From NCBI GenBank assembly GCA_037308085.1, contig CP147779.1, forward strand, positions 1,216,001 through 1,280,000: 64,000 nt of DNA. Reading direction: 5' to 3'. The stretch is from Promethearchaeati archaeon SRVP18_Atabeyarchaeia-1 (GTDB lineage: Archaea > Asgardarchaeota > Atabeyarchaeia > Atabeyarchaeales > Atabeyarchaeaceae). Positions 1,503-28,822 of the stretch are shown in pieces; positions within the stretch are counted from its first letter, which is position 1; each line of letters starts with the position of its first letter. The translations under genes were made by a program, and so were the position numbers. The notes beneath the pieces were generated by a model. It did not search any database and had not been told where the DNA came from. It saw nothing but the letters and a program-made list of their open reading frames with translations.

Positions 1503-2654
1503 ATGAGCAGGAAAGAGGTTTTTCCAACTGGTTCTCAATTCATGAATGGCGACATTGCGTGCGCGGAGGGCGCGATTGCAGCTGGTTGTAGATTTTTCGC
1601 CGGCTATCCAATTACCCCAGCAACTGAAATTGCCGAGCACCTCTCCCAGAGGATGCCAGAGTGCCGCGGAGTCTACATCCAAATGGAAGACGAAATCGCG
1701 TCGATGGCGGCTGTAATTGGAGCTTCTTATACTGGTTTGAAGGCTATGACCGCTACATCTGGACCAGGCTTCAGCCTCATGCAGGAAAACATAGGTCTAG
1801 CCGTAATGACAGAAGCACCATGCGTAGTCGTAGACATCATGCGTGGTGGGCCGAGCACCGGACAGCCGACCCTGCCGGGCCAACAGGATGTGATGCAGGC
1901 CAAGTGGGGTTCCCACGGAGATTATGGAATAATCGCGCTCTCACCTTCTTCCGTTCAAGAGATGTTTGACTTGACAGTTGAAGCTTTCAACCTCTCCGAG
2001 ACGTACAGGGTTCCGACATTACTTATGGGGGATGAGATTGTTGGACATATGTGGGAGAAGGTTGTAATTCCTGCGCCTAGCCAGATAAAGATAATGAACC
2101 GTAAGAAACCTAATGTTTCACCGGACAAGTACGAGCCTTTTATGCCTGACGACAACTTAGTCCCACCAATGGCATGTTTCGGCGAGGGGTATCATTTTCA
2201 CGCTACGGGCCTAACTCATGATGAACGCGGGTTTCCACGAACATCGAGTTCCGAAACTCAGTCTAAACTCGTCAGACGATTGTGTGACAAGATCAGTAGG
2301 AATGCCGACAGGATCATAAGGCTTCAAAAAATGTCGCTTGAAGACGCCGATGTCGGTGTATTTGCGTATGGGATAGTTGCTCGAGCTGCCCTAAGCGCTG
2401 TAAAGAGAGCGCGGGAAAAGGGAATAAAGGCTGGCCTTCTTCGTCCTATCACATTGTGGCCTTTCCCAGAGAAGGAAGTTGAAAGAATGGCGCAGAAGGT
2501 TAAGGCAATAGTTGTACCAGAGATGAACTGCGGGCAGCTGGTACGGGAAGTTGAGAGAAGTGCGAAAGAGACTCCCGTAAACTTTCTCGGGAAGCTGGGA
2601 GAGGATCCTCATACGCCGGCGGAGATTTTCGATGCGATCAGGAAGTGTTGCTGA
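1503..2654 (+). CDS. korA: 2-oxoacid:ferredoxin oxidoreductase alpha subunit
   Basis: FFAGYPITPATE, QMEDEIAS, TATSGPGFSLMQE, RGGPSTG. ATG at 1503 directly after the korD stop is preferred over the ORF-track start at 1416. Confidence 0.93.
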   Translation: MSRKEVFPTGSQFMNGDIACAEGAIAAGCRFFAGYPITPATEIAEHLSQRMPECRGVYIQMEDEIASMAAVIGASYTGLKAMTATSGPGFSLMQENIGLAVMTEAPCVVVDIMRGGPSTGQPTLPGQQDVMQAKWGSHGDYGIIALSPSSVQEMFDLTVEAFNLSETYRVPTLLMGDEIVGHMWEKVVIPAPSQIKIMNRKKPNVSPDKYEPFMPDDNLVPPMACFGEGYHFHATGLTHDERGFPRTSSSETQSKLVRRLCDKISRNADRIIRLQKMSLEDADVGVFAYGIVARAALSAVKRAREKGIKAGLLRPITLWPFPEKEVERMAQKVKAIVVPEMNCGQLVREVERSAKETPVNFLGKLGEDPHTPAEIFDAIRKCC

Positions 2655-3517
2655 TGGTCGAGCAGAGAGTCGAGCAAACGAGTGAGCAGGGAATTGAGCA
2701 TCCTTTCCTGAAATACTTGAGAAAAGCAATGATGCCTCATATATGGTGCCCAGGATGCGGTAACGGGACGGTCTTGAACTCCTTCGTCCACGCCATCGAT
2801 GAACTGAAGATGGACGTAAACAAGATCGTAGTCATATCAGGCATAGGATGCATTGGTCGAACCGCGGGATACGTAAATACGGATTCGTTTCACACTACGC
2901 ACGGGCGCGCGCTAGCATTTGCGACAGGAGTAAAATTGGCGAATCCGGAATTGCAGGTTGTCGTCATAAGTGGAGACGGTGACCTGTTCGCCATCGGGGG
3001 AAACCATTTCATTCACACTGCACGCAGGAACTTGGGGATCAAAGTAATCTGTGTAAACAACTTCAATTATGGGATGACGGGTGGGCAAGCGGGTCCGACA
3101 ACACCCCTCGAATCAATAACGACGACAACCTCTCGCGGAAACATTGAGCGCCCTTTCAACCTCATGCACCTAGCGGCAGCATCAGGAGCAGTCTACGCGG
3201 CAAGATGGACAACTCTAGACGCGCGGAGGTTGACTCAGTCAATCAGGAAGATGTTGCAGAAAGAGGGTTTTGCATTCATCGAGGTGATATCTCCTTGCCC
3301 AGAGATTTTCGGGCGATATAATAAGAGGAAGTCTGGGCTAGAGAACATGGCGTGGTTCAAGAAATCGGCAGTGGTGGAGAGCTTCTCGGATCCAGCCAAG
3401 GCGGAGATAACCACGGACAAAATACCTATCGGGGAGTTCGTGGATATAGAGAAGCCGAGTTATGAAAAGCTGCTAGATCAGAAAATGTCTCGGATTAACG
3501 AGAAGACTTTGCGGTAG
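2654..3517 (+). CDS. korB: 2-oxoacid:ferredoxin oxidoreductase beta (TPP-binding) subunit
   Basis: WCPGCG, SGIGC, HGRA, GDGD...N TPP motif, YGMTGGQ, SPCP; TGATG overlap with the korA stop. Confidence 0.93.
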   Translation: MVEQRVEQTSEQGIEHPFLKYLRKAMMPHIWCPGCGNGTVLNSFVHAIDELKMDVNKIVVISGIGCIGRTAGYVNTDSFHTTHGRALAFATGVKLANPELQVVVISGDGDLFAIGGNHFIHTARRNLGIKVICVNNFNYGMTGGQAGPTTPLESITTTTSRGNIERPFNLMHLAAASGAVYAARWTTLDARRLTQSIRKMLQKEGFAFIEVISPCPEIFGRYNKRKSGLENMAWFKKSAVVESFSDPAKAEITTDKIPIGEFVDIEKPSYEKLLDQKMSRINEKTLR

Positions 3518-5032: not shown

Positions 5033-6763
5033 TCACGGGGCAATCTCCTTGATCTTCTCATAGACCTCATTGGTTGTAAATGGTAGTCCCGTCGTCTTCC
5101 GGAGCGGGACTGATTCCCTGAGCAATGTCTTCTTCAGTAGACTCGAAAGATGACCTGTCGCATTCAACTCCGCAACAATAATTCTGTCCACGCTATCCAA
5201 GTAAGGCTTGATCTGTCTGACTGGCAAGGGCGAAAGCATCAAAATATGTAGTGATGACACCTTCTTTCCTTCCTTGCTTGCCTTGGCTACTGCTTCCCTC
5301 ACTGCACCCTCTGATGGCCCCCAGCTTACTACGCCAACGTCAGCCTTCCTGTTGCCAGCTGGAAACACTCTCGTCATGTTTGGCTCGTCTTCAGCCCTCC
5401 TGAGTTTCAGAAGTCGCTTATCCATCATCATTTGATGAATCTCAGGCTCGTAACTGAATGTTGCATTCTCAAGTCTCTCGAGGCTTTCCGAAATATAGAT
5501 ACCGCGTTTGTCGCCCGGAATCGCCATCGGCGAAACACCGTCTTTCGTCACCTCGTACCTCTTGTAGTGACCCGACTGCTCAACCTCCTTGTAATTTGGT
5601 CTCAACCTGTTCTCGACTTGAATCTTCGAGAGATCCGGTTTCTCGATCATCTCACCGCGATCCGATAACGATTGCTCAGAAAGGAGTATTGCAGGCATCT
5701 GCAGTCGTTCAGCCAAGTTGAATGCTTTGATAGTCAGATAGAAGCAGTCTTCAACATTCGCTGGGGCAAGTACGATCCGAGGCGCATCACCATGTCCTTG
5801 GTACAAGGCTGCATTAAGGTCTCCTTGTTCGGTCTTAGTAGGCATACCAGTACTTGGTCCAGCTCTTTGGACATCTACTATTACAACAGGTATTTCGGAC
5901 ATAGAGGCTAGGCCAAGGGTCTCAGCCATGAGTGAGAAGCCTGGACCAGAGGTTGCTGTCATGGACTTTACGCCGCCGAATGAAGCTCCAATCGCAGCTG
6001 ATAGTGCGGCAAGCTCATCCTCGGTCTGAAACAGTGTTCCGCCAAACTTTGGGAACTCACGAGCTAGGAATTCCATAATAGTTGTTGAAGGTGTGATCGG
6101 ATAGCCTGAGAAAAATCTGCACCCAGCTGCTATCGCTCCCAGAGCGATAGCGATGTTCCCGCTCTGAAATATCTTGGTAGGAGAAACCTTCGGTTTCGGC
6201 AATTCGTAAGTCATCGGCGAGTTCTTCTCTGAGTGCTCGAAACCCAACTTCAGCGCATCGATGTTCTTCTCAACACCCTTGAATCGCTTCTGAACGAGGT
6301 CAGAAATGATTCCGATTGGTATTGACAGAATATACGCTGCGGCACCAAGGGCAACCATGTTCTTGGTCCTAGCGACTCCCACCTTTTCCTTGGATATGCT
6401 AGTCATAGGCAAGCCATACAAACTCAATGAAGGTCTCATTTTGGGTGGCGACGTAAGAAGATCTGGATCGTATACAGCCAGTCCCTTGTCATGGACGCTG
6501 TTGATGTGTGCGTCTAATGAGGTTTCATCAAAAGCGATTAAGACGTCCATGGAATCCCATGGCGACAGAGTATTCTCAATTCCAAGTCTCACTTGGTAAA
6601 GGCTCTGGCCTCCAGTGACTTCGGCAGGATATGTTCTGAAATTGCACAAGCTCATGCCGAGTTTAGCGGCGGCAAGCGTCAGGATTTCACCAGCAGTTAT
6701 TATCCCCTCGCCTGATTCGCCTGCTATCCTAAGGATTATGTCAGAAACCTTGACAGATCCCAT
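5033..6763 (-). CDS. Second 2-oxoacid:ferredoxin oxidoreductase, fused gamma-alpha subunit
   Basis: N-terminal IAGESGEG (gamma domain), then SGYPITPST, QTEDE, TATSGPG, QRAGPSTGMPTKTEQGD. ATG at 6763 is the likely start (track start 6835). Confidence 0.92.
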   Translation of the reverse strand: MGSVKVSDIILRIAGESGEGIITAGEILTLAAAKLGMSLCNFRTYPAEVTGGQSLYQVRLGIENTLSPWDSMDVLIAFDETSLDAHINSVHDKGLAVYDPDLLTSPPKMRPSLSLYGLPMTSISKEKVGVARTKNMVALGAAAYILSIPIGIISDLVQKRFKGVEKNIDALKLGFEHSEKNSPMTYELPKPKVSPTKIFQSGNIAIALGAIAAGCRFFSGYPITPSTTIMEFLAREFPKFGGTLFQTEDELAALSAAIGASFGGVKSMTATSGPGFSLMAETLGLASMSEIPVVIVDVQRAGPSTGMPTKTEQGDLNAALYQGHGDAPRIVLAPANVEDCFYLTIKAFNLAERLQMPAILLSEQSLSDRGEMIEKPDLSKIQVENRLRPNYKEVEQSGHYKRYEVTKDGVSPMAIPGDKRGIYISESLERLENATFSYEPEIHQMMMDKRLLKLRRAEDEPNMTRVFPAGNRKADVGVVSWGPSEGAVREAVAKASKEGKKVSSLHILMLSPLPVRQIKPYLDSVDRIIVAELNATGHLSSLLKKTLLRESVPLRKTTGLPFTTNEVYEKIKEIAP

Positions 6764-7021
6764 ATCTCTTCCAACCCTAGAATTCATGAATAGTGCAAGA
6801 GCAATAGCCCTGCCACTCGGAACAGATCGTTCCATTCACCAGTGAATTTGCTGAGATATAATCCAGTAATGGAATACTCAGCCCAATTCTTAAGTCTTAG
6901 CTTGGTTTCTCAATTGTTTAATTGATGCTATATTCACATTAACAAAGGACCCACATGCTTAATTAACGGTCATCAGCTTTGAAACTATCTGATTGCTGCG
7001 TATTCATTAATATTCAGCAAA

Positions 7022-8233
7022 GTGTACGATGGAGGCCCACACGTTTTGGAGAATAGATTCGACCCTAACCAGTTCGTACGCACCGAGATACAGGAGATCA
7101 GGGACGTCGTAAAGGAAGGGAAAGTCCTCCTATGTTGCAGTGGAGGGGTCTGCAGCAACGTCATGGCTACGCTCTTTCGGAAAACCGCCGAACAACCTAA
7201 TGTCACCTCGGTCCTCATCGACACGGGCTTCTTGAGAGAAAAGGAAGTTGAGACTGTTTCGGAGATGCTGTCGAGGGCTCCAATGAAGCTGAACCTACAA
7301 GTCGTTGATGCAAGAAGGAAATTCATGAAAGCTGTCGAACAGAGTGAAACTGGAATAGAGAAACGAAAGGCGTTTTGCGAGGTCTTCTACGCAACTCTCA
7401 GCGAACTTGCAGAAAGAGAGCAAGCAGAATTTGTAGCACTTGGAACAAGTGCAACCCCCAAGGCTTCTACAAGCCAGATTCCCCAACTCTCTTCAATAAA
7501 CAAGCCGCGGAGTGACTCGGTCAAGAGGTTTGAGCCACTAGCCTCGCTAGACAGATGCCAGGTAAAGCAAGTCGCGGAGGCATTGGACCTTCCGCCAAGA
7601 CTCTCAGACTTGGTTCCATTCCCATCTATGGGACTGTTGATACGCGCAATCGGAAGAATAAGTGATGAGAAGATAAGGACAGCAAGAGAAGCAACAAGTG
7701 TAGTGGAGGATGAGCTTCAGCACATCAGACCCAGCCAGTACTTTGCCGCCGTACTTGACAACAAAGATGACAACTACGAGAAGATCGACAAAGTGAGAGA
7801 GAAGGTCTCCGACCTGTTCGACGTTGCCCCCAGTCAAGTTGACATCGTAATCCCTCAAAGCAGAGTATCTGCCCTAGTTGACAAGACAAGAGTATACCTA
7901 CGGGCATCAGCGGCGAGGGTAACACTTCTCGGATCTAAGGAGACGCTTGAGCCAGACTACGACGATCTCAGCAATTTCCCAATAGAATTCAACGAGAAAT
8001 ACAAGGACTTCGCAAGATGCCTTTACAGCGTCACAAGGAAACCGAAGAACGGGAAGTACATAGTCGTCGTCAGAGCAGTGTCGACAGAGGACTTCAGCAA
8101 GGCAATTATAGCCAAACTCGAGTGGAGCAAACTCTATTCAATCGCAGAGAGGATCATGGATGAATGTAGTAAGGTCGCATCAGTATACTACGACGTGACA
8201 CCGAAGCCTCCGGCAACAATAGAGCTGGAATAA
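7022..8233 (+). CDS. GMP synthase subunit B (ATP pyrophosphatase)-like protein, degenerate active site
   Basis: FDPNQFV...SGGVCS (canonical SGGVDS), IDTGFLRE, EKRK, EPL, PFPSMGLLIR and C-terminal YDVTPKPPATIELE. The IKSHHN motif is absent. Confidence 0.8.
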   Translation: MYDGGPHVLENRFDPNQFVRTEIQEIRDVVKEGKVLLCCSGGVCSNVMATLFRKTAEQPNVTSVLIDTGFLREKEVETVSEMLSRAPMKLNLQVVDARRKFMKAVEQSETGIEKRKAFCEVFYATLSELAEREQAEFVALGTSATPKASTSQIPQLSSINKPRSDSVKRFEPLASLDRCQVKQVAEALDLPPRLSDLVPFPSMGLLIRAIGRISDEKIRTAREATSVVEDELQHIRPSQYFAAVLDNKDDNYEKIDKVREKVSDLFDVAPSQVDIVIPQSRVSALVDKTRVYLRASAARVTLLGSKETLEPDYDDLSNFPIEFNEKYKDFARCLYSVTRKPKNGKYIVVVRAVSTEDFSKAIIAKLEWSKLYSIAERIMDECSKVASVYYDVTPKPPATIELE

Positions 8234-8278
8234 GGAACGATAAATAGAAGCACCCAGACCCAGAGGTCATCGGCACAT

Positions 8279-9292
8279 TCATCTCTCGAGGACTTCCCCG
8301 AATGCCTCACCGACAATTTTCCATGCTAAATCAGGTTTCGTACAGCTAATTGTCGTCCCCTTTGTAGCTCTGTACGACCAGCAGAATATACTGTCCACCT
8401 TTTTTCCGCCAAAATCAATCCCGTCAATCAACTTGATTGTCTGCTTGACCTCCTCCGTCTTGAATGCTGGAACAGCAAACAGCTGGACCCATATCTGCGA
8501 CATCTTGCCGTATTCCTTACAGAGTTTCAGAGCTTTCGTAGTTACTTCTGTCACATAAGGACGCATCGCTGGTTTGCCGAAGACGTAAGGATATGGGTCG
8601 GTGCTTAGTACGTCGATCTCCTTGGCTGAGGCGATCTTTGACCAGTCTCCTATCCCAGATGCTTCCCCCCCGCCAGGGAGCAGGCACGTGATTACTTTTT
8701 TGCCCGGGTCCATCGACTTCACTAGGCGCGCAGCTTCAAGCAGGAGCGCCACCAACGAGTCTTCTCGGAATCTGCGAACATCATCGGTCAGGTCTTTTGG
8801 CATTTCGTAGCCGAACTTCTCCTTGAACAGCTGCTGGCAAGTCGGACAACGGCACGTCCATTCCTTCGACGACGGCACTGCGTAGTGGGGTTCGTCTTGG
8901 AAAAGGTATTCCCAGGTAAGGTCCCTCACAAATGCCTTAACCCACGTCAGATAATAATCTCTAAATCCCGTATTGATGCATGCTGCTGCACATGCTCTCC
9001 CGCTTTCTGCCATGACTTGGCGGCAATCTTCATGGTCCTGAAGAAAGGCTGAGATAGGCTCACCTCCGAAGACTTTGCCGAAACCCCACAGGCTAATGTG
9101 AACACTCAGATCAAATTCCTTCTTGGCTATTCGTGAGATTTCCTTGATCGCCGGCCACCAGTGCTCGCAGTCGAATTCACTCACGGATAGCAACACAGAG
9201 TTGCAGTTGTGGGCAGCCATCTCTCTGAAGTCCTCGCGTGCATGATCAACTTGAGTACAACCATAGTATGCTACGCCTGTTTCGCGCACCAA
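8279..9292 (-). CDS. Glycoside-hydrolase-like TIM-barrel protein with CxCxxC Zn motif (GH42-like fold)
   Basis: AREDFREM..HNCNSV, FQDEPHY, CRCPTCQQLFKEKFG, VLSTDPY. Confidence 0.6.
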   Translation of the reverse strand: MVRETGVAYYGCTQVDHAREDFREMAAHNCNSVLLSVSEFDCEHWWPAIKEISRIAKKEFDLSVHISLWGFGKVFGGEPISAFLQDHEDCRQVMAESGRACAAACINTGFRDYYLTWVKAFVRDLTWEYLFQDEPHYAVPSSKEWTCRCPTCQQLFKEKFGYEMPKDLTDDVRRFREDSLVALLLEAARLVKSMDPGKKVITCLLPGGGEASGIGDWSKIASAKEIDVLSTDPYPYVFGKPAMRPYVTEVTTKALKLCKEYGKMSQIWVQLFAVPAFKTEEVKQTIKLIDGIDFGGKKVDSIFCWSYRATKGTTISCTKPDLAWKIVGEAFGEVLER

Positions 9293-15298: not shown

Positions 15299-15556
15299 CT
15301 ATTTCTTACTCGGCTTCACCGCAGTCTTCTTCGCAGGCTCCTTGTTGGCTTTCTCCTTCTTTTCTGCCCCCTTCTTTGCGGATTTGCGGCAAGCTCCCGT
15401 TGGACACACGTCGACACAGGCCCAGATATCCGTGCATTTCTCGGGATGTGCCAGAACTGATTTCTCTTCACTATCCATTTCGAGAGCGTTGTTGGGGCAG
15501 GCCTGCACACAAGCTTGGCAGCCAATGCAGGTCTCCCTGTCAATTTCTGGTGGGAT
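15299..15556 (-). CDS. Dicluster ferredoxin with Lys-rich tail; apparent ATC start
   Basis: Frame extends 16 codons upstream of the track start: (I/M)PPEIDRETCIGCQACVQACP...CTDIWACVDVCPTGAC. GGAAGGTGAT RBS lies 5 nt before ATC at 15556; an in-frame TGA lies just upstream. Confidence 0.8.
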   Translation of the reverse strand: MPPEIDRETCIGCQACVQACPNNALEMDSEEKSVLAHPEKCTDIWACVDVCPTGACRKSAKKGAEKKEKANKEPAKKTAVKPSKK

Positions 15557-15693
15557 ACGACATCACCTTCCAATCCATCTGTGTGATGATACCTCCATCA
15601 TCGATCATCTAATAAGACTTTCCTTGTTACGGGAATGAGAGTGGAAGAGTCTGCACTCCTCTCTTGCACACATCTGATGCGAGTCGCAGGAGG

Positions 15694-17085
15694 TCACCGA
15701 TTAACTCGCTGATCCCTCTTCTTCACATGATCCCTGATGAGTCTCTCAAATTCGTCTTTCGGCACAACTAAGCATCTACGGATTCCCTGGCGTACCATGG
15801 TGGCCTTGAGTTTTCCGCGCTGGCACCAACTGTTCAATGTTCTGCGTGAGATGTGCGCCATCCTCGAAACATCTATGAGCTTCACGCCTTCGCTCTCAAT
15901 TCTCCTAGTCTCTTCTCTCTGTTGCTCTGCCTTCCGCAATACTCTCTCAAGTCTTGCAATTTCGCTTTGCTGAACCACAAGATACTTTAGACTTCCTTCA
16001 CGCACAAAAGCGGTCTCAAGTTTTCCTTGCTGATGCCATCGCAACAGTGACGGATATGAAATGCCTAACATTCCAGCTAGATTCATGAGTCTTACTCCAT
16101 GTCTTCTGATCCTCTTTGTCTTATCTTCCTCTATGAGAGCTTCCTGTTCGACTCTTTTGGCTTCATCCACCGGGATATAGTACCAAGATAGCGACGATTT
16201 GCCCAGGGCCAGTTTCTTCCTGAGATGTCTTATCCTTCCAGATTTGATCCATCTCTCCACGGTGAGATAACTAACGTTTAGCATGCGGGCAACTTGGCCG
16301 GTCGTCAAATAGCCTCTTCTCTCGCTTCTACACTCATCTACTCTCTTCAACCAATCAACAGCCTTGTACGAGAACTCAGCGATTCCTGCATCAAGCAACG
16401 CTATTATTCCAAGTTTCCGAATATAAAGAACAGTAGGTCCATTGCTGCGGACACGTACACGTGTGCTCGCTGGAGCAAGGCACTCAACAAAGCCCTTTGC
16501 ATAACCAATGAGAAACAGATATCTGCTTTGGGTGATGCTCCATTTCCATTGACCGATTGCGCCAAAGCACGGTTTTTTCTCGCCTTTCTCGACACACACT
16601 TGGCAATTTCCGTCTCCATCAATAAGCCCTGCAATAAAAGGGATACCACACTCGACACTCGCCAACTTGTTCTCTTCAAGAAATCTATTCACTGCATCTG
16701 GGCTGTCTCTGAGAGCACTCTTCCTTGGAAGAAACTGAAATAGTGCTTTTGAGTAGGTTAACACAATCCACATGTCTTTCCGCTTGTCCTTGTGAATTTG
16801 CGGGTTTGAAGCGATTCGTCTCAGCAGTCCGGCTATCCTTCGAGCCAGCTCTAACTCATCTATGTTCAAACAGAAGCCAACGCGATACGAGTGGGACTTC
16901 CTCCTCATCGTTTTCTTGCCCAGATGGGAGTATCCGTCTGCAATGTATAACCCAAGCAAATAGGCCAACTCTTTCTTGGAAAGGGCAGTAATGTTTAGGC
17001 AGCGCGTTGGACACATATGTATTCTCACTCGTTTGCCCCGGTAGTAACCTGTGCCATAGAAAAATACGCTGATCATATGATACAA
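15694..17085 (-). CDS. Free-standing double-motif LAGLIDADG endonuclease fused to three Xis/MerR-like HTH domains
   Basis: LAYLLGLYIADG and FIAGLIDGDG; C-terminal repeats YLTTGQVARMLNVSYLTVERWIKSGRI, LMNLAGMLGISYPSLLRWHQQGKL and LIDVSRMAHISRRTLNSWCQRGKL. True start is possibly ATG 17016. Confidence 0.85.
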   Translation of the reverse strand: MYHMISVFFYGTGYYRGKRVRIHMCPTRCLNITALSKKELAYLLGLYIADGYSHLGKKTMRRKSHSYRVGFCLNIDELELARRIAGLLRRIASNPQIHKDKRKDMWIVLTYSKALFQFLPRKSALRDSPDAVNRFLEENKLASVECGIPFIAGLIDGDGNCQVCVEKGEKKPCFGAIGQWKWSITQSRYLFLIGYAKGFVECLAPASTRVRVRSNGPTVLYIRKLGIIALLDAGIAEFSYKAVDWLKRVDECRSERRGYLTTGQVARMLNVSYLTVERWIKSGRIRHLRKKLALGKSSLSWYYIPVDEAKRVEQEALIEEDKTKRIRRHGVRLMNLAGMLGISYPSLLRWHQQGKLETAFVREGSLKYLVVQQSEIARLERVLRKAEQQREETRRIESEGVKLIDVSRMAHISRRTLNSWCQRGKLKATMVRQGIRRCLVVPKDEFERLIRDHVKKRDQRVNR

Positions 17086-17136
17086 AGACCATGAGAACTA
17101 TGGCAACACATGAAAGAGCATAGTGCCGATAGCCCG

Positions 17137-17286
17137 ATGGGTGAATCCAGGGTGAGTAGTCAATCTAAGACGACGATAGAGTTATCGATGGAAACTAGGA
17201 ATCGACTGAAGGCACTAGGCAGAAAGGGTGAAACATACGATCAAATTATAAAGAAGCTTCTGAGGCTGACCAAACAAGCCACATGA
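17137..17286 (+). CDS. Small ribbon-helix-helix DNA-binding / antitoxin-like protein (not in the ORF track)
   Basis: MGESRVSSQSKTTIELSMETRNRLKALGRKGETYDQIIKKLLRLTKQAT matches the archaeal TTI.lS.ET..RL...g.kGETYD.II.rLl pattern; alternative GTG start at 17152. Confidence 0.75.
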   Translation: MGESRVSSQSKTTIELSMETRNRLKALGRKGETYDQIIKKLLRLTKQAT

Positions 17287-17681
17287 AGATGGCCCTACAA
17301 AACAGGGTCTTCTTGACAGTGCACAAAATGCTGAAGACCTAATTCGTCAAAATAAATAATCGAGACCTCAGAGCATAAAGGAGACGGATAGACGCAAGCA
17401 ACCAGAAGACTAATCGAAACCTCAAAAAGAAAGGCTCTTTGACATGTAGCTAAACCAGGATAGTGTTAACTTCTCTTTCAGCTATGCATGTTTCCCCGTC
17501 GATTTCTGGCGGCATGTAGAATCACCTTTTGCTTCCAAATCTCTGATATCAGTCGCTCTTATTATAAGATTTTCTTCTTTTTTTTGGATGCCTCCAATTC
17601 AGCCTCAAGACAAGCGGGATGGTTTGCACAGGTTTAAAAAGAGACGCCGGGAAGGTGAAGTGATGAACGAGGTCCGTAATT

Positions 17682-24334: not shown

Positions 24335-25768
24335 TCACGCAGATATTTTGACGTTTGAGAACCTGATGGATGGCGTGATTGTGACTCTGTGCCTGAGCTC
24401 ATCTTCGTAGGTTCTGACGTCGTTACCTACTTCATTTACGTTCCTCAGAAGCTGCACTATGTCTGACCCTATCATGGCTTCCTTCACGGGGTATTTTATC
24501 TCTCCGCCCTCGATTTTGAACGCTGTTTGGACTCCAATTGAAAAGGCCCCTGACACTTGATTGGAAGTGTGAGCACCTATTACGGTGTATGCGAGTACTC
24601 CGTCTTCAACTTCTGATATTAGCTTCTCAAGGTCCTTAGTTCCGGGTCTAACTACGATGTTGCTTGTCTCTATTATTGGTTCAGAACTATAGGTTCTGAG
24701 TCCCGTGACATCCTTTCTTGTTGAGTTACCTGTGCTTTTGGTGTTAGCTTGATTGGCCCAAAGTGAATCATAGAGGAAAGAATTGATGACTCCCTTCTCG
24801 ATTAGGCGTGTGTTCTTTCTTGGGTTGCCTTCATCGTCGAATGACTGCGAAGCGAATCCCTTCTCAATTACGCCGTTATCCTCAATCGAGATGAGATCAG
24901 ATAGAATCTTCTTCCCCAACTTACCCGCAAAGGGGGTTTTGTTCCGTTGAAGGTTGTCTCCCATAAACGCTGGATGTATAGTGTGTGCGAAGAGATCACC
25001 CACGGCATATGAGTGCAGCACTAGATCCATGCTTCTGGTCTCGATAGGTTTCCTCGCGAGCTGGTCCACACACAGCTTTGAGACCGTCTTACCCAGCTGC
25101 TCCACATCGACGTCACTTGAGTTCCTTGCAAGTTGCAGGTAGTCTACACCTGAGACATCCCCATCGCCCTTAGCCATAGATGAAACTCGAGCGTCGACGA
25201 GCGTCTCAGTCTCCTCAAGGTCTACACCAGCGCTATTTGCTATTGCCCTATTGTATGTAATGTACGTGATTGTGCCACTGCCCGATTCTACGCGTTTATC
25301 GTAGTTTCTCATTGCTTCGGCAAGGGTTCTTCCCTTGTCGATCAGCTCCTCTATTTGGGCGTTCCTAACCTGTTTGTCAGAGATTCCCCTGACCTTCTGG
25401 TACGTGCCCTTTGCTGGAAATGCCTTGAACCTTGGATCCTCTTCCCTTGCCCGAGCGGTTCTCAGAGCTTTCTCTATGGTTTCATTCATCGGTTTTTCAG
25501 ATAGGTTTGAAGTGCAGGAGAACCCTAGTTTCTTGCCCATTGCTACGCGAATACCCAAGCCTGACTGGACTTTGCGCTGGGCGAATGTGACTTGAAGTCT
25601 CTCAATGAAACATGCGGATATGACCCTTCGGAGTGCAAAGGCCTCAGCTTGCGTAGCTCCAGTCTTCTCAGCTCGAGCCACTGCCTTGGACGCGGTTGGA
25701 GCCAAGCCGAGGTAACTGTTAAGCTTGCTCTGCTCTCCGGGACCAGTTCTAGCTTTGATGTTCGCCAT
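24335..25768 (-). CDS. tldE: TldE/PmbA family protein
   Basis: GLGIRV...GFS, FDDEG, LIEKGVI, STGN, SGAFS, PVKEAMI; lacks the HExxxH motif. Confidence 0.88.
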   Translation of the reverse strand: MANIKARTGPGEQSKLNSYLGLAPTASKAVARAEKTGATQAEAFALRRVISACFIERLQVTFAQRKVQSGLGIRVAMGKKLGFSCTSNLSEKPMNETIEKALRTARAREEDPRFKAFPAKGTYQKVRGISDKQVRNAQIEELIDKGRTLAEAMRNYDKRVESGSGTITYITYNRAIANSAGVDLEETETLVDARVSSMAKGDGDVSGVDYLQLARNSSDVDVEQLGKTVSKLCVDQLARKPIETRSMDLVLHSYAVGDLFAHTIHPAFMGDNLQRNKTPFAGKLGKKILSDLISIEDNGVIEKGFASQSFDDEGNPRKNTRLIEKGVINSFLYDSLWANQANTKSTGNSTRKDVTGLRTYSSEPIIETSNIVVRPGTKDLEKLISEVEDGVLAYTVIGAHTSNQVSGAFSIGVQTAFKIEGGEIKYPVKEAMIGSDIVQLLRNVNEVGNDVRTYEDELRHRVTITPSIRFSNVKISA

Positions 25769-25774
25769 TCTGGT

Positions 25775-25849
25775 TCAACCTCCACCAACCACCACATTCT
25801 TCACTCTAACACTGGTGCTCCCATTTCCCAGGGGCAGACTACCCTATTC
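25775..25849 (-). pseudogene. Stranded duplicate of the tldD 3' end (24 codons plus stop)
   Basis: Translates E*GSLPLGNGSTSVRVKNVVVGGG* versus the TldD C-terminus EQSNLPVGNGGSSTRIRNVVVGGQ* (14/24 identical, ungapped); its GGAGGT serves as the tldE RBS. Confidence 0.85.
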
Positions 25850-26048
25850 ACGACTCGTCATTCATTTCTCATCAATGTTTAGCCAAGACTAGACTATATG
25901 TTTATCGCGATAGTTTCAGAGTGCGTGGAAAGTTGACTTAAATGGTTCTGAGCCTGAAGTCACTGGTTTTCTGCAGTATGTGAGACTGCACATGCATCAC
26001 GAGACCCTCATGGATTCCGTCTGATCTTGGTCTACTTACGGCACCCCA

Positions 26049-27110
26049 ATGGCAAGCGGGAAGCTTAGCGAGGAATACGGCATAGACAAGAGAACTCTTC
26101 GCCGCGGGCTAGTAAAACTGATTGGCGAGAGAGAATACAAAGGGATCATGGATCGAAATGTGAAACAGAGGAAGAAACAGGTTCCGCTAGAGTGGGCACT
26201 CAGAAGACTAAGGAACGCGGAGTTGTTAACTAAACTCAGTAACGAATATGGAGTAAGCAGGAAGACTCTGCGATCCGCCTTCCGGTTGCTGATCGGTGAA
26301 GGAGAATACAGCGCGATAATAGACAGAAAGGCTAGGAAGCAGGTTCCAATCAAAAAGGTGTTAAGGCGATTCAAGAGCGGAGAGACATTGAAGAGTCTTT
26401 GTATGGAATATCATGTCACGTGGGAAACCCTGAGGAACATTCTCACGAAGGCAATTGGTGAAGAAGAGTACCGGAAATTAGTTCCAATGCACAGGGGAGG
26501 AAGAGCGCGGAGACAACTTCCAGTTCAGGAAGTTTTGACGAGAGTCAAAGCCGGTCAGTCACTAGGAAGACTTGCCAAAGCTTACAATGTAAGCTGGCTG
26601 ACTTTGAAGCGTAGGCTGGTAGAACTAGTTGGCAAAGACGGATATAAGTCGGCTAGAAAACGAACAACGCGAATCCGAGTGAAACCTCGAAGGGCCACAG
26701 TGGGATACGGCTCTCCTCTTGCAAAGGAAAATGGGGCTGACAGCCTTATTGAACTCAAGGTCAGAATGCTCCTACAGAATAACAGGGTTTCCTTCGGATA
26801 TCGGGAAAGCCTAGTTGTCAGGGGACACTGCTATGAACCAGACTTCATGTTCGGTGATAGGACCATCGTTGAGGTCATGGGAGTCACGAATACTGAGTAT
26901 TGGACGCGGTGCCACAAGAAACTGTAAGATTACGTCGGAAGTGCCTATAGAGTCATTGCAGTGATACCAGACTACTTAATCGACATAAGAAGCAAGTATA
27001 TTCCAAAAGGAGTCAGCATGATCAGGTACAACGACTTCACGAATAACATCGAAAGATACATAAAACAATTAGTGAACAAAACTAATATCGACAACTCAGC
27101 CATTCACTGA
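26049..27110 (+). pseudogene. Four-HTH-repeat protein fused to a PD-(D/E)XK (Vsr/DUF559-like) nuclease, interrupted by in-frame TAA at 26925-26927
   Basis: Repeats of L..EY.V...TL......IG..EY; nuclease motif S..E.....L......YEPDF.....IVEV.G. The frame stays open for 60 more codons (DYVGSAYRVIAVIP...) after the TAA. Confidence 0.75.
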
Positions 27111-27391
27111 TGAACTGCCACTCACGCGTGGTGATTTCAAGCATCATCGACAGTATTGCTGCAGGGGCTGGAAAAGATCCCATATTCTTCTTCCGTTAGA
27201 TCTCGACCCAGCTTGTCAAACCCTTTCCGACGTCGGATTTTGATTGGGGGAATCATACTGATGGGAGATTAGTCGGAGTTCCAGATGGGGCCCATAATAT
27301 ACCCCCTTGCCGAAGTAGAGCCTTGGTACTACCCTGCCTGTTTCAAGGAAATCGGTTGGAGGTTTCTCGCATGTTTCCAGTCTGGCGACCA

Positions 27392-28822
27392 CTACTGCCC
27401 GCCGACAACAACATTTCGGATTCTTGTGCTACTCCCTCCATTACCCACGGGCAAATTGCTCTGTTCATTCTTACCACAGAATCCTATGCCAGCCACCGAG
27501 AAGTCTTTTCCGACTGCATCGATATTCTGAAGTGTCTCCAGAGTTAGTCCGCTCAATGAGACGTCGAGGAGCGGTTTCGTGACTTGACCCTTTTCGATCA
27601 AGAAGGCTTCCTGGGCTGAGAACTGGAACGATCCTATCGCGATGTTAACTTGGCCTCCTCTGGTTCCTTTCACATAAATGCCGTTTCTGATATCCTCAAT
27701 TAGTTCATCAAATGAGTAGTCTCCAGGGGCGATGTACGTGTTGGACATGCGAGGGATCGGACGGAAGTGGTATCCTTGGGCTCTGGCTCCCCCGTTTGGT
27801 GCGAGATTTAGCTTAGCCGCGGCTTCCCTGTTCAAGATGTATTCTCGAAGTACGCCTTTCTCGATTATCGTTCTTTTCTTCGCTAGTGTTCCCTCAGAAT
27901 CATATTTGAAAGACCCGAAGCCATCAGGGACGCTTGGATCATCGTAGACTGTCGCCACTTCTGAACCGACCTTCTGTCCAAGCTTCCCAGTCAGTACACT
28001 CTCCCCAGAGATTACAAAGTCAGCTTCAGCGGCATGTCCAAGCGCTTCATGGACGAAGACGCCTATGTGCTCGGGATCTGCAACCACGGTAAATCGGCCA
28101 CCTGTTGCTTGCTCAGCTTTCAACAAAGCCGAAGCTTTGTTGGCAGTCTCCTTAGCGGTCGAGTCAAGGTCCTTCTCAAGAAACTTCTCAAATCCTCCCA
28201 TAGCACCGATCCTCTTCCGGTACTGACGGATCTTGTCCCCCTCCTTAGCGACTGGAACGAAGACGAGTGATCCCCTTGAAGGCTCACCTGTGATCTTCGA
28301 GCCTTCGCTATTGAGAAAAATGGTTTTCCCATAAGAATCGCCGTAGGTGACGGAGGCGCTAGCTATACTTGGGTTCTCTCGGATCACACGTGAGAGCTTC
28401 AGCGCTAGACCAAGCTTCTCATCGATCGGGACATTGGCGAAAGGCGTCTTCGCCTTGGCAATAAGTGAGTCCTCAATCTTCCTCAATCGGGCTATCTTGA
28501 CCTTCTCCTTGAGGTGCTCACTCGTCGCCTTAGCCATCTTGAAAGCGGCTTCGACGCCCCCCATGATCTCTTCGCGCGATATATCAGATGATGCAGCAAA
28601 ACCCCAGGCGCCATTAGCGAGCACTCGAATTCCGATTCCCTCACTGTAACTTGAAGTTGCCTGGTCAATCGTTTTGTCCCCCACGACTATCGATGTCGCG
28701 CTCATCATCTCGATCCTCATATCTGTGTACTCGGATCCAAGCTTGTCGGAATAATCAAGAGCCTTCTCAGAGATATCAAGAACATCCAATACCTGTAGAA
28801 CCTCCGAAAACAAGTCACTCAA
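27392..28822 (-). CDS. tldD: TldD metalloprotease
   Basis: GIGIRVLANGAWGFA, VHEALGHAAEAD, YDSEG, PRMSNT, GGQV, CGK. Confidence 0.93.
   Translation of the reverse strand: MSDLFSEVLQVLDVLDISEKALDYSDKLGSEYTDMRIEMMSATSIVVGDKTIDQATSSYSEGIGIRVLANGAWGFAASSDISREEIMGGVEAAFKMAKATSEHLKEKVKIARLRKIEDSLIAKAKTPFANVPIDEKLGLALKLSRVIRENPSIASASVTYGDSYGKTIFLNSEGSKITGEPSRGSLVFVPVAKEGDKIRQYRKRIGAMGGFEKFLEKDLDSTAKETANKASALLKAEQATGGRFTVVADPEHIGVFVHEALGHAAEADFVISGESVLTGKLGQKVGSEVATVYDDPSVPDGFGSFKYDSEGTLAKKRTIIEKGVLREYILNREAAAKLNLAPNGGARAQGYHFRPIPRMSNTYIAPGDYSFDELIEDIRNGIYVKGTRGGQVNIAIGSFQFSAQEAFLIEKGQVTKPLLDVSLSGLTLETLQNIDAVGKDFSVAGIGFCGKNEQSNLPVGNGGSSTRIRNVVVGGQ

Follow-up and report, generated by a model that had tools for sequence, protein, structure and literature searches.

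A nuclease cassette between tldD and tldE of an Asgard archaeon that probably homes by replacing the end of its host gene

Here we report an analysis of the tldD-tldE locus in a stretch of 64,000 nucleotides (nt) from the genome of Promethearchaeati archaeon SRVP18_Atabeyarchaeia-1 (assembly GCA_037308085.1, contig CP147779.1, positions 1,216,001 to 1,280,000 of the forward strand), which as a whole is called the window and whose coordinates are used unless another locus is named. In this DNA the two genes are separated by an insert carrying an antisense gene for a nuclease with helix-turn-helix (HTH) repeats, and the end of tldD is present twice, once on either side of the insert. The arrangement is very probably that of a homing cassette which replaces the end of its host gene, of the kind described as WHO elements in yeast and as mORFs in fungal mitochondria. 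The transmitted unit is probably made up of a spare copy of the final ~25 codons of tldD, the antisense nuclease gene and a right end which is likely to bear a promoter. Among relatives of this archaeon the same locus is found in empty, intact, decaying, cargo-swapped and scarred states.

The gap between tldD and tldE amounts to 1,623 nt and holds an open reading frame (ORF) on the plus strand (26049..26927), in agreement with an earlier note on this DNA, which had placed an oppositely oriented HTH-nuclease gene in about 1.6 kb between the two genes. Read along the minus strand, tldD with its own TAG stop is followed by a 281-nt spacer, the antisense ORF, about 195 nt of non-coding DNA, a stranded second copy of the tldD tail, 6 nt and the ATG of tldE (Table 1). 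Both tldD and tldE/pmbA are full-length as judged by their Pfam domains. A gapless alignment pairs the final 24 codons of tldD (27395-27466) with 25778-25849, 14 of 24 residues and 43 of 72 nt being identical, and the TGA stop of the stranded copy (25775-25777) stands 6 nt before the tldE start. Differences between the two tails are distributed as 9/5/15 over the three codon positions; at 10 of the 15 codon positions of the same meaning (stop included) the spelling is different, and where the working tldD has CAG the stranded copy has TAG. The gapless 14-of-24 homologue 6 nt before the tldE ATG, the different codons for most shared residues and the change of CAG to TAG had all been put forward in the earlier note, whose description proved right in every detail that was checked. 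The stranded tail scored 74 against the working one, the next best score among ~128,000 22-residue words from the six frames of the window being 25, and genome-wide it was also the best match to the working tail, above the tails of all other TldD/PmbA paralogues.

The last codons of the stranded tail contain GGAGG (25779-25783), a motif that corresponds to the 3′ terminus of the 16S rRNA of the window genome and serves as the ribosome-binding site of tldE. It is spelled by the final Gly codons, 8-12 nt before the tldE start, in all empty alleles as well as in the stranded fragment; in occupied alleles the working tails spell these glycines differently, and the motif is missing from them. From this layout, tldE seems to have been coupled once to tldD through the 6-nt spacer (25769-25774). 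At the left end of the insert, a short similarity (CAGACT ... CCTCC) directly after the tldD stop is common to the window and one relative (L039). The right end is a candidate two-way promoter, which could drive both the nuclease gene and tldE.

Table 1. Features of the tldD-tldE locus in the window
Feature	Coordinates	Strand	Remarks
tldD	27392..28822	-	intact, 476 codons; three PmbA_TldD Pfam domains complete
Working tldD tail (putatively cassette-borne)	27392..27466	-	24 codons and TAG stop; no GGAGG ribosome-binding motif
Left inner part of cassette	27111..27391		spacer and decayed C-terminal extension of nuclease
Nuclease pseudogene	26049..27110	+	antisense to tldD; four HTH repeats followed by a domain of predicted PD-(D/E)xK fold
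Right inner end of cassette	25853..26048		not tldD; A/T-rich TATA-like boxes; common to other occupied alleles
Stranded tldD tail (apparently native)	25775..25852	-	25 codons and TGA stop; CAG to TAG at codon -23
tldE/pmbA	24335..25768	-	intact; complete Pfam domains

Alleles of relatives were compared, the occupied ones coming from a survey of tldE orthologues and the contigs that carry them; G000 denotes the window's own genome (closed, 2.8 Mb), G001 and G002 are relatives, and L-numbers are loci or contigs, of which L052, L190, L191/L192 and L195 come from metagenomes. Six alleles are empty, the tldD stop being followed by 6 nt and the tldE start (G002, L052, L190, L191/L192 and L195), and the two genes are also adjacent in more distant archaea. 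One of these genomes, G002, is that of Candidatus Atabeyarchaeum deiterrae (Atabeyarchaeia-2), an Asgard archaeon related to the window genome at the family level, in which tldD ends in a Gly-Gly-Gly run, stop, 6 nt and tldE, with upstream synteny kept. The tldD ends of the empty alleles all carry a Gly-Gly-(Gly/Ala) codon run and none reads ...GGQ, as the earlier note had predicted when it expected ends of the GGG type directly before tldE. The distribution is patchy: the closest relative of the window by tldE (L190, 78%) is empty, and tldE of the empty L195 is 89% identical to that of L196, which is scarred. In this last allele the working tail is of the occupied type, and behind it lies a scar of 54 nt with the last codons of an old tail and the spacer.

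Apart from the window, occupied alleles are present on contig C69 of G001 (L177) and in L193, L194 and L197, each with a stranded tail and the 6-nt spacer before tldE. The junction is shared, for in G001, L193, L194, L197 and the window homology to tldD begins within two codons of the same point, just after the Lys codon of a GFCGK motif. The 130 nt upstream of the window's stranded tail align to G001 with a score of 18.5 against 3.4 ± 1.9 for shuffled sequences (0 of 2000 reached it), L193 joins them in a three-way alignment, and a TATA-like motif of 32 nt recurs almost unchanged in G001, L193, L194 and L197; the same 130 nt of the window gave no alignment with tldD. A tblastn similarity to tldD upstream of the G001 tail was not significant once the tail was removed and was dismissed.

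Two further observations concern these loci. Contig C69 of G001 breaks in a ~90-nt repeat (L177 3388-3473), which also occurs on four other G001 contigs and once in G000 (C1:2662420-2662459) and probably represents a small mobile element that entered the G001 cassette. TnpB-like genes adjoin the tldD-tldE locus in two relatives (L038 4059-5186 and L195 6393-7661).

Comparison with the relatives allowed us to ask which of the two tails is native. Over the last 10 codons, to which the usable tail signal is confined, the stranded tail agrees with the working tail of L190 at 25 of 30 nt, which is as similar as the gene bodies (80% nt identity between the window and L190), and both have Lys in place of the Arg of other orthologues. 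The working tail of the window agrees with that of L190 at 16 of 30 nt and with those of L038, L039, L194 and L196 at 21-23 of 30 (21 in L038, L039 and L194), such groupings resting on 30-72 nt with saturated third positions. Its best overall match is L196 (51 of 72 nt, 21 of 24 residues). The tails of L038 and L194 are 93% identical, compared with ~78% for their gene bodies. Together with the 6-nt spacer that the stranded copy has in common with the empty alleles, these matches agree with two proposals of the earlier note, namely that the stranded copy is the original operon junction and that the functional tail came from a divergent allele, here one grouping with the tails of occupied and scarred loci. 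The alignments support a native tldD body (72-77% identical to the G002 and L038 orthologues) with the last ~25 codons apparently supplied by the cassette. A drop of nucleotide homology to G002 at 27450 was considered as a recombination boundary and rejected, every orthologue pair dropping alike. As for the donor of the working tail, orthologue pairs are 54-71% identical over the last 72 nt and no grouping found support when splits were counted over six tails.

The stranded tails of different alleles differ mainly at third codon positions and without indels (5/4/17 between the window and G001, 4/1/13 between G001 and L193), which is expected if each of them worked until its own invasion. Their state ranges from pristine in G001 and L193 to heavily decayed in L194 and L197. 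This pattern is what the model of WHO elements predicts, where the recipient's own functional end is stranded at each homing event (PMC7282813).

The nuclease ORF encodes four repeats of ~56 residues with Pfam HTH matches, the first of them partial, and a C-terminal domain; an in-frame TAA (26925-26927) falls two residues after an invariant Lys, and reading continues in the same frame to 27107. In comparison with the homologues, the first repeat is partial and the C-terminal extension is decayed. With its premature TAA, the partial first repeat, the lost C-terminal extension and the one stop in the stranded tail, the window copy of the cassette is old and decaying. Only three close homologues were found among 5.8 billion proteins. 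The nearest to the window (P0002 of L038, 56% identical) is intact, has 483 amino acids and carries more HTH repeats; the intact homologues on L038 and L039 (53-56% identity) are convergent with the end of a tldD orthologue and their genes end 42-55 nt from its stop, and the contig of the third ends before the target gene can be read. A profile search of 1.8 billion representatives returned ~25 strong and ~300 weak relatives, some of the weak ones being DUF559. In a set of 400 Asgard genomes, members of the family occur only in a single archaeal family, where they are multi-copy, and the length of the HTH array varies from 4 to about 10 repeats.

The AlphaFold model of the nuclease domain (pLDDT 86.5) predicts a restriction-endonuclease-like alpha/beta core of the PD-(D/E)xK superfamily, and the top Foldseek and VIA matches are all nucleases of this superfamily (Bax1, T7 endonuclease I, PspGI, Vsr and I-Bth0305I). 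The best fold match is the catalytic domain of I-Bth0305I (Z 9.5, rmsd 2.8, 95 of 98 residues), which does not establish closeness to the I-Bth0305I family, as unrelated PD-(D/E)xK members also reach Z of at least 8, within 1-1.5 of it. No Pfam model matched the domain at the curated cut-off; there are sub-threshold matches, namely weak ones to Pfam Phage_endo_I and to a PHROG endonuclease, and distant profile matches reach DUF559. The family conserves a Glu in the first helix, Pro-Asp-Phe, Glu-x-x-Gly and, in the helix after that, a Lys; in alignments of 10 and 11 sequences E, G, Y, W, K and Y never vary, nor does P-D-F. The invariant Lys on the next helix may take the place of the canonical one. 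The conserved His of the EDxHD signature is absent from both alignments.

Wherever the context of a member of the nuclease family could be read, the nuclease faces a gene's 3′ end, be it that of tldD, EF-2, an acdB-like gene or others; homologues of the window nuclease adjoin the tldD end on two other contigs. At the EF-2 site of G002, the final 42 codons of the gene occur again 2.5 kb beyond EF-2 (94 of 126 nt identical, differences 5/8/19), and in G000 a 15-residue EF-2 remnant is found beyond the EF-2-linked nuclease. The earlier note had suggested looking for homologous nucleases beside duplicated gene tails, and the EF-2 site carries such a stranded tail. These EF-2 tails were recovered only with longer flanks; tblastx self-comparison at L002, L003, L042, L043, L046 and L047 detected no gene-end duplications. 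At the third site, a paralogue of the window genome lies between an acetyl-CoA-synthetase-like (acdB-like) gene and its neighbour, and in G001 and G002 this site is empty, with ~85 nt between the genes. Gene-end replacement appears from these loci to be a trait of the nuclease family and not an accident at tldD.

The G002 EF-2 locus (L176, C1:120000-131000) has features of its own. An ORF of 722 codons without a Pfam match (6715-8880) lies on the opposite strand between EF-2 and the stranded 42-codon tail (6473-6598), and a MarR-like ORF together with an HTH-nuclease paralogue stands beyond that tail. Cassettes may have piled up here one after another, as they do in WHO clusters.

Homing at tldD could proceed in the following way. 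The nuclease would cleave an empty tldD-tldE allele site-specifically, in or beside the tail, and the break would be repaired from an occupied allele, the left end pairing in the body of tldD and the right end with the donor's stranded tail and tldE. The recipient would gain the donor's tail and the nuclease gene, while its own tail would be pushed downstream and stay there as the leader and ribosome-binding site of tldE. The recoding of the tail would be what confers immunity on the occupied allele.

Several observations weigh against the interpretation as a homing cassette. With its first codons the spare tail rebuilds an almost unchanged sequence over the junction, which does not favour escape of the occupied allele from cutting. 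Two residues after the conserved Glu, where the canonical nucleases have Lys, the family has Met, Thr, Gly, Cys or Ala and never Lys, and the nuclease gene of the window itself, to judge from its reading frame, is a pseudogene. In L194 a KaiC-like ATPase gene (2453-3244) sits in the place of the nuclease, with the spare tail, the right-end motif and the stranded tail kept beside it. Beyond the nuclease of L038 neither tldE nor a stranded tail was found, and at the acdB-like site (the L002 insert) neither tblastx self-comparison nor a sensitive search found a tail. Furthermore, the donor of the working tail cannot be named because third codon positions are saturated.

The chief competitor, to which we give a small chance, is one ancient insertion in an ancestor of the Atabeyarchaeia-like lineages, followed by vertical descent and later losses through recombination between the tails, with no movement since and with the stranded tails owing their protein-like look to continued selection, for example as leader of tldE. 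It would account for the junction and the homologous right-end sequence that all occupied alleles have in common; moreover, the two tails are direct repeats able to recombine and excise the insert, and the end of the stranded tail is constrained, carrying as it does the GGAGG of tldE. Selection on an RNA leader, however, would not produce differences concentrated at third codon positions (4/1/13 and 5/4/17), and stranded tails in such unlike states, pristine in G001 and L193 and badly decayed in L197 and L194, fit different ages of insertion. Excision by tail-tail recombination is also at odds with the empty L190 and L195, which have tails of the native type with the ribosome-binding motif and not chimeras of the cassette type, and descent without movement with the tails of L038 and L194, which are more alike than their gene bodies.

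Slightly less probable still, and in our opinion improbable, is that the locus arose by illegitimate recombination or by horizontal transfer of tldD together with its neighbour, the HTH-nuclease being a passenger such as a defence or regulatory gene. The different cargo gene at the same site in L194 would fit a passenger, as would the non-canonical catalytic motif of a protein whose cleavage activity is a prediction. A passenger would hardly explain that at each of three host genes (tldD, EF-2 and the acdB-like gene) a separate nuclease subfamily stands against the 3′ end, with stranded tails at two of the three, that five alleles have the same junction, or that the family is multi-copy in the single archaeal family to which it is limited among the 400 Asgard genomes. 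Finally, the ~16 TldD/PmbA paralogues of the genome, with their similar C-terminal motifs, offer a formal source of a stranded fragment left from a deleted tldD paralogue, or of a working tail copied from a paralogue in the same genome. This origin is very unlikely: the stranded tail beats every paralogue tail genome-wide as a match to the working one, it is identical to the native tail of L190 at 25 of 30 nt, and it sits with the same 6-nt spacer where empty alleles have their native tail. The earlier note had itself named a deleted tldD paralogue as the finding that would overturn its proposal, and the genome-wide comparison of tails disfavours it.

Other classes of mobile element were considered and rejected. 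A transposon or insertion sequence does not agree with the lack of terminal repeats at the insert ends and of a transposase domain, nor with a flanking repeat that is a diverged gene end of 75 nt and not a short exact duplication. An island borne by an integrase was discarded, no recombinase being encoded in the 1.6 kb and the two tails being just 60% identical. A group I or group II intron or an intein was set aside as well: there is no Rfam intron match, the nuclease is antisense, and tldD stops before the insert.

Besides the tldD insert, the window holds a second cassette 8 kb away (15299-17600, minus strand), in which a LAGLIDADG protein of 463 codons with three HTH repeats (15694..17085, minus strand) is flanked on both sides by the 5′ end of a small ferredoxin gene. 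Of these two gene starts, the upstream one (17483-17515) has the ATG but is cut off after 11 codons, the full-length gene (from 15556) starts with ATC and not ATG, and promoter-like boxes upstream of the ferredoxin copies are duplicated too. The locus looks like the replacement of a gene start by a different type of nuclease. With regard to the host genes themselves, each genome of this archaeal family has ~16 TldD/PmbA paralogues, most of them in neighbouring pairs, which is an unusually large expansion.

A broader reading, which we offer tentatively and regard as somewhat doubtful, is that the nucleases form a new structural family of homing endonucleases, in which an array of variable length (4 to ~10 HTH repeats) reads a long target, a non-canonical PD-(D/E)xK domain cuts, sublineages are dedicated each to one housekeeping gene (tldD, EF-2, acdB-like), and the cassette rescues the cut gene by a spare recoded end and its downstream operon partner by an outward promoter. 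If true, this would be a natural cleave-and-rescue design with a modular DNA reader. Should the HTH array set specificity module by module, it would be of potential interest for genome engineering. For practical work on Asgard genomes, gene ends beside such cassettes may be foreign and can mislead phylogenies and annotation of housekeeping genes, and the repeats of the cassettes break metagenome assemblies at these loci. The series of life-cycle states across relatives makes the system directly testable.

Among known systems, the seg and mob genes of bacteriophage T4 encode free-standing homing endonucleases situated between conserved genes, which cut alleles lacking them and, like the tldD cassette as we propose it, spread by repair with co-conversion of flanking DNA; they differ in their intergenic location and normally have no duplicated, stranded gene end. 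In protein architecture, the tldD nuclease resembles I-Bth0305I of the EDxHD (Vsr-like) group, which also combines an N-terminal DNA-binding region with a C-terminal nuclease of the PD-(D/E)xK superfamily (PMC3239194), whereas the tldD family is free-standing and not intron-encoded, has an HTH array of variable length and lacks the conserved His. A published paper on mobile elements of Atabeyarchaeia mentions neither tldD nor this nuclease.

Closer in organization are the mORFs of fungal mitochondria, which make gene hybrids at atp6 of Allomyces and at atp6, atp9, cox2 and nad3 of Glomus (PMC3630166; Paquin et al. 1994 cited there). The order is the same as at tldD, that is, gene core, foreign C-terminus, endonuclease gene and native C-terminus downstream, and there too the two C-termini are conserved as protein and ~60% identical as DNA, the native one grouping with close relatives (PMC3630166). 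In contrast to the tldD nuclease, the mORF enzymes are of the LAGLIDADG or GIY-YIG type, are usually encoded in the same orientation and often in frame, and reside in organelle genomes. Experimental demonstration of gene-end-replacing homing comes from the WHO elements at the yeast aldolase gene FBA1 (Coughlan et al. 2020, eLife; PMC7282813). In these, the nuclease gene carries a spare 3′ end of its target and homing swaps the host end and pushes the old one downstream, the displaced fragment is the right homology arm, old nucleases and fragments decay, and the host gene has a 3′ end whose evolution departs from that of the body (PMC7282813). The tldD cassette has the spare end, the displaced fragment and the decay in common with them; homing and the use of the fragment as homology arm would be alike as we propose them, and the short tail signal points towards a separate history of the gene end at tldD too. 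The WHO proteins are intein-like, with LAGLIDADG and zinc-finger parts, and home at meiosis in a eukaryotic nucleus, whereas the tldD cassette combines a predicted PD-(D/E)xK fold with a tandem HTH array, is antisense, splits an operon and sits in an archaeal chromosome. No tandem cluster of old elements was seen at tldD, and cutting there is a prediction drawn from the protein and its genomic setting.

The homing strategy outlined here, proven until now only in yeast nuclei and described in fungal mitochondria, would in this way be extended to the chromosome of an Asgard archaeon, and the union of an HTH-repeat array with a PD-(D/E)xK domain is an undescribed nuclease architecture. The principle is known from yeast and from fungal mitochondria, and what is new in comparison with them is the architecture of the nuclease, the antisense layout that splits an operon, and a full life-cycle series at a single archaeal gene.

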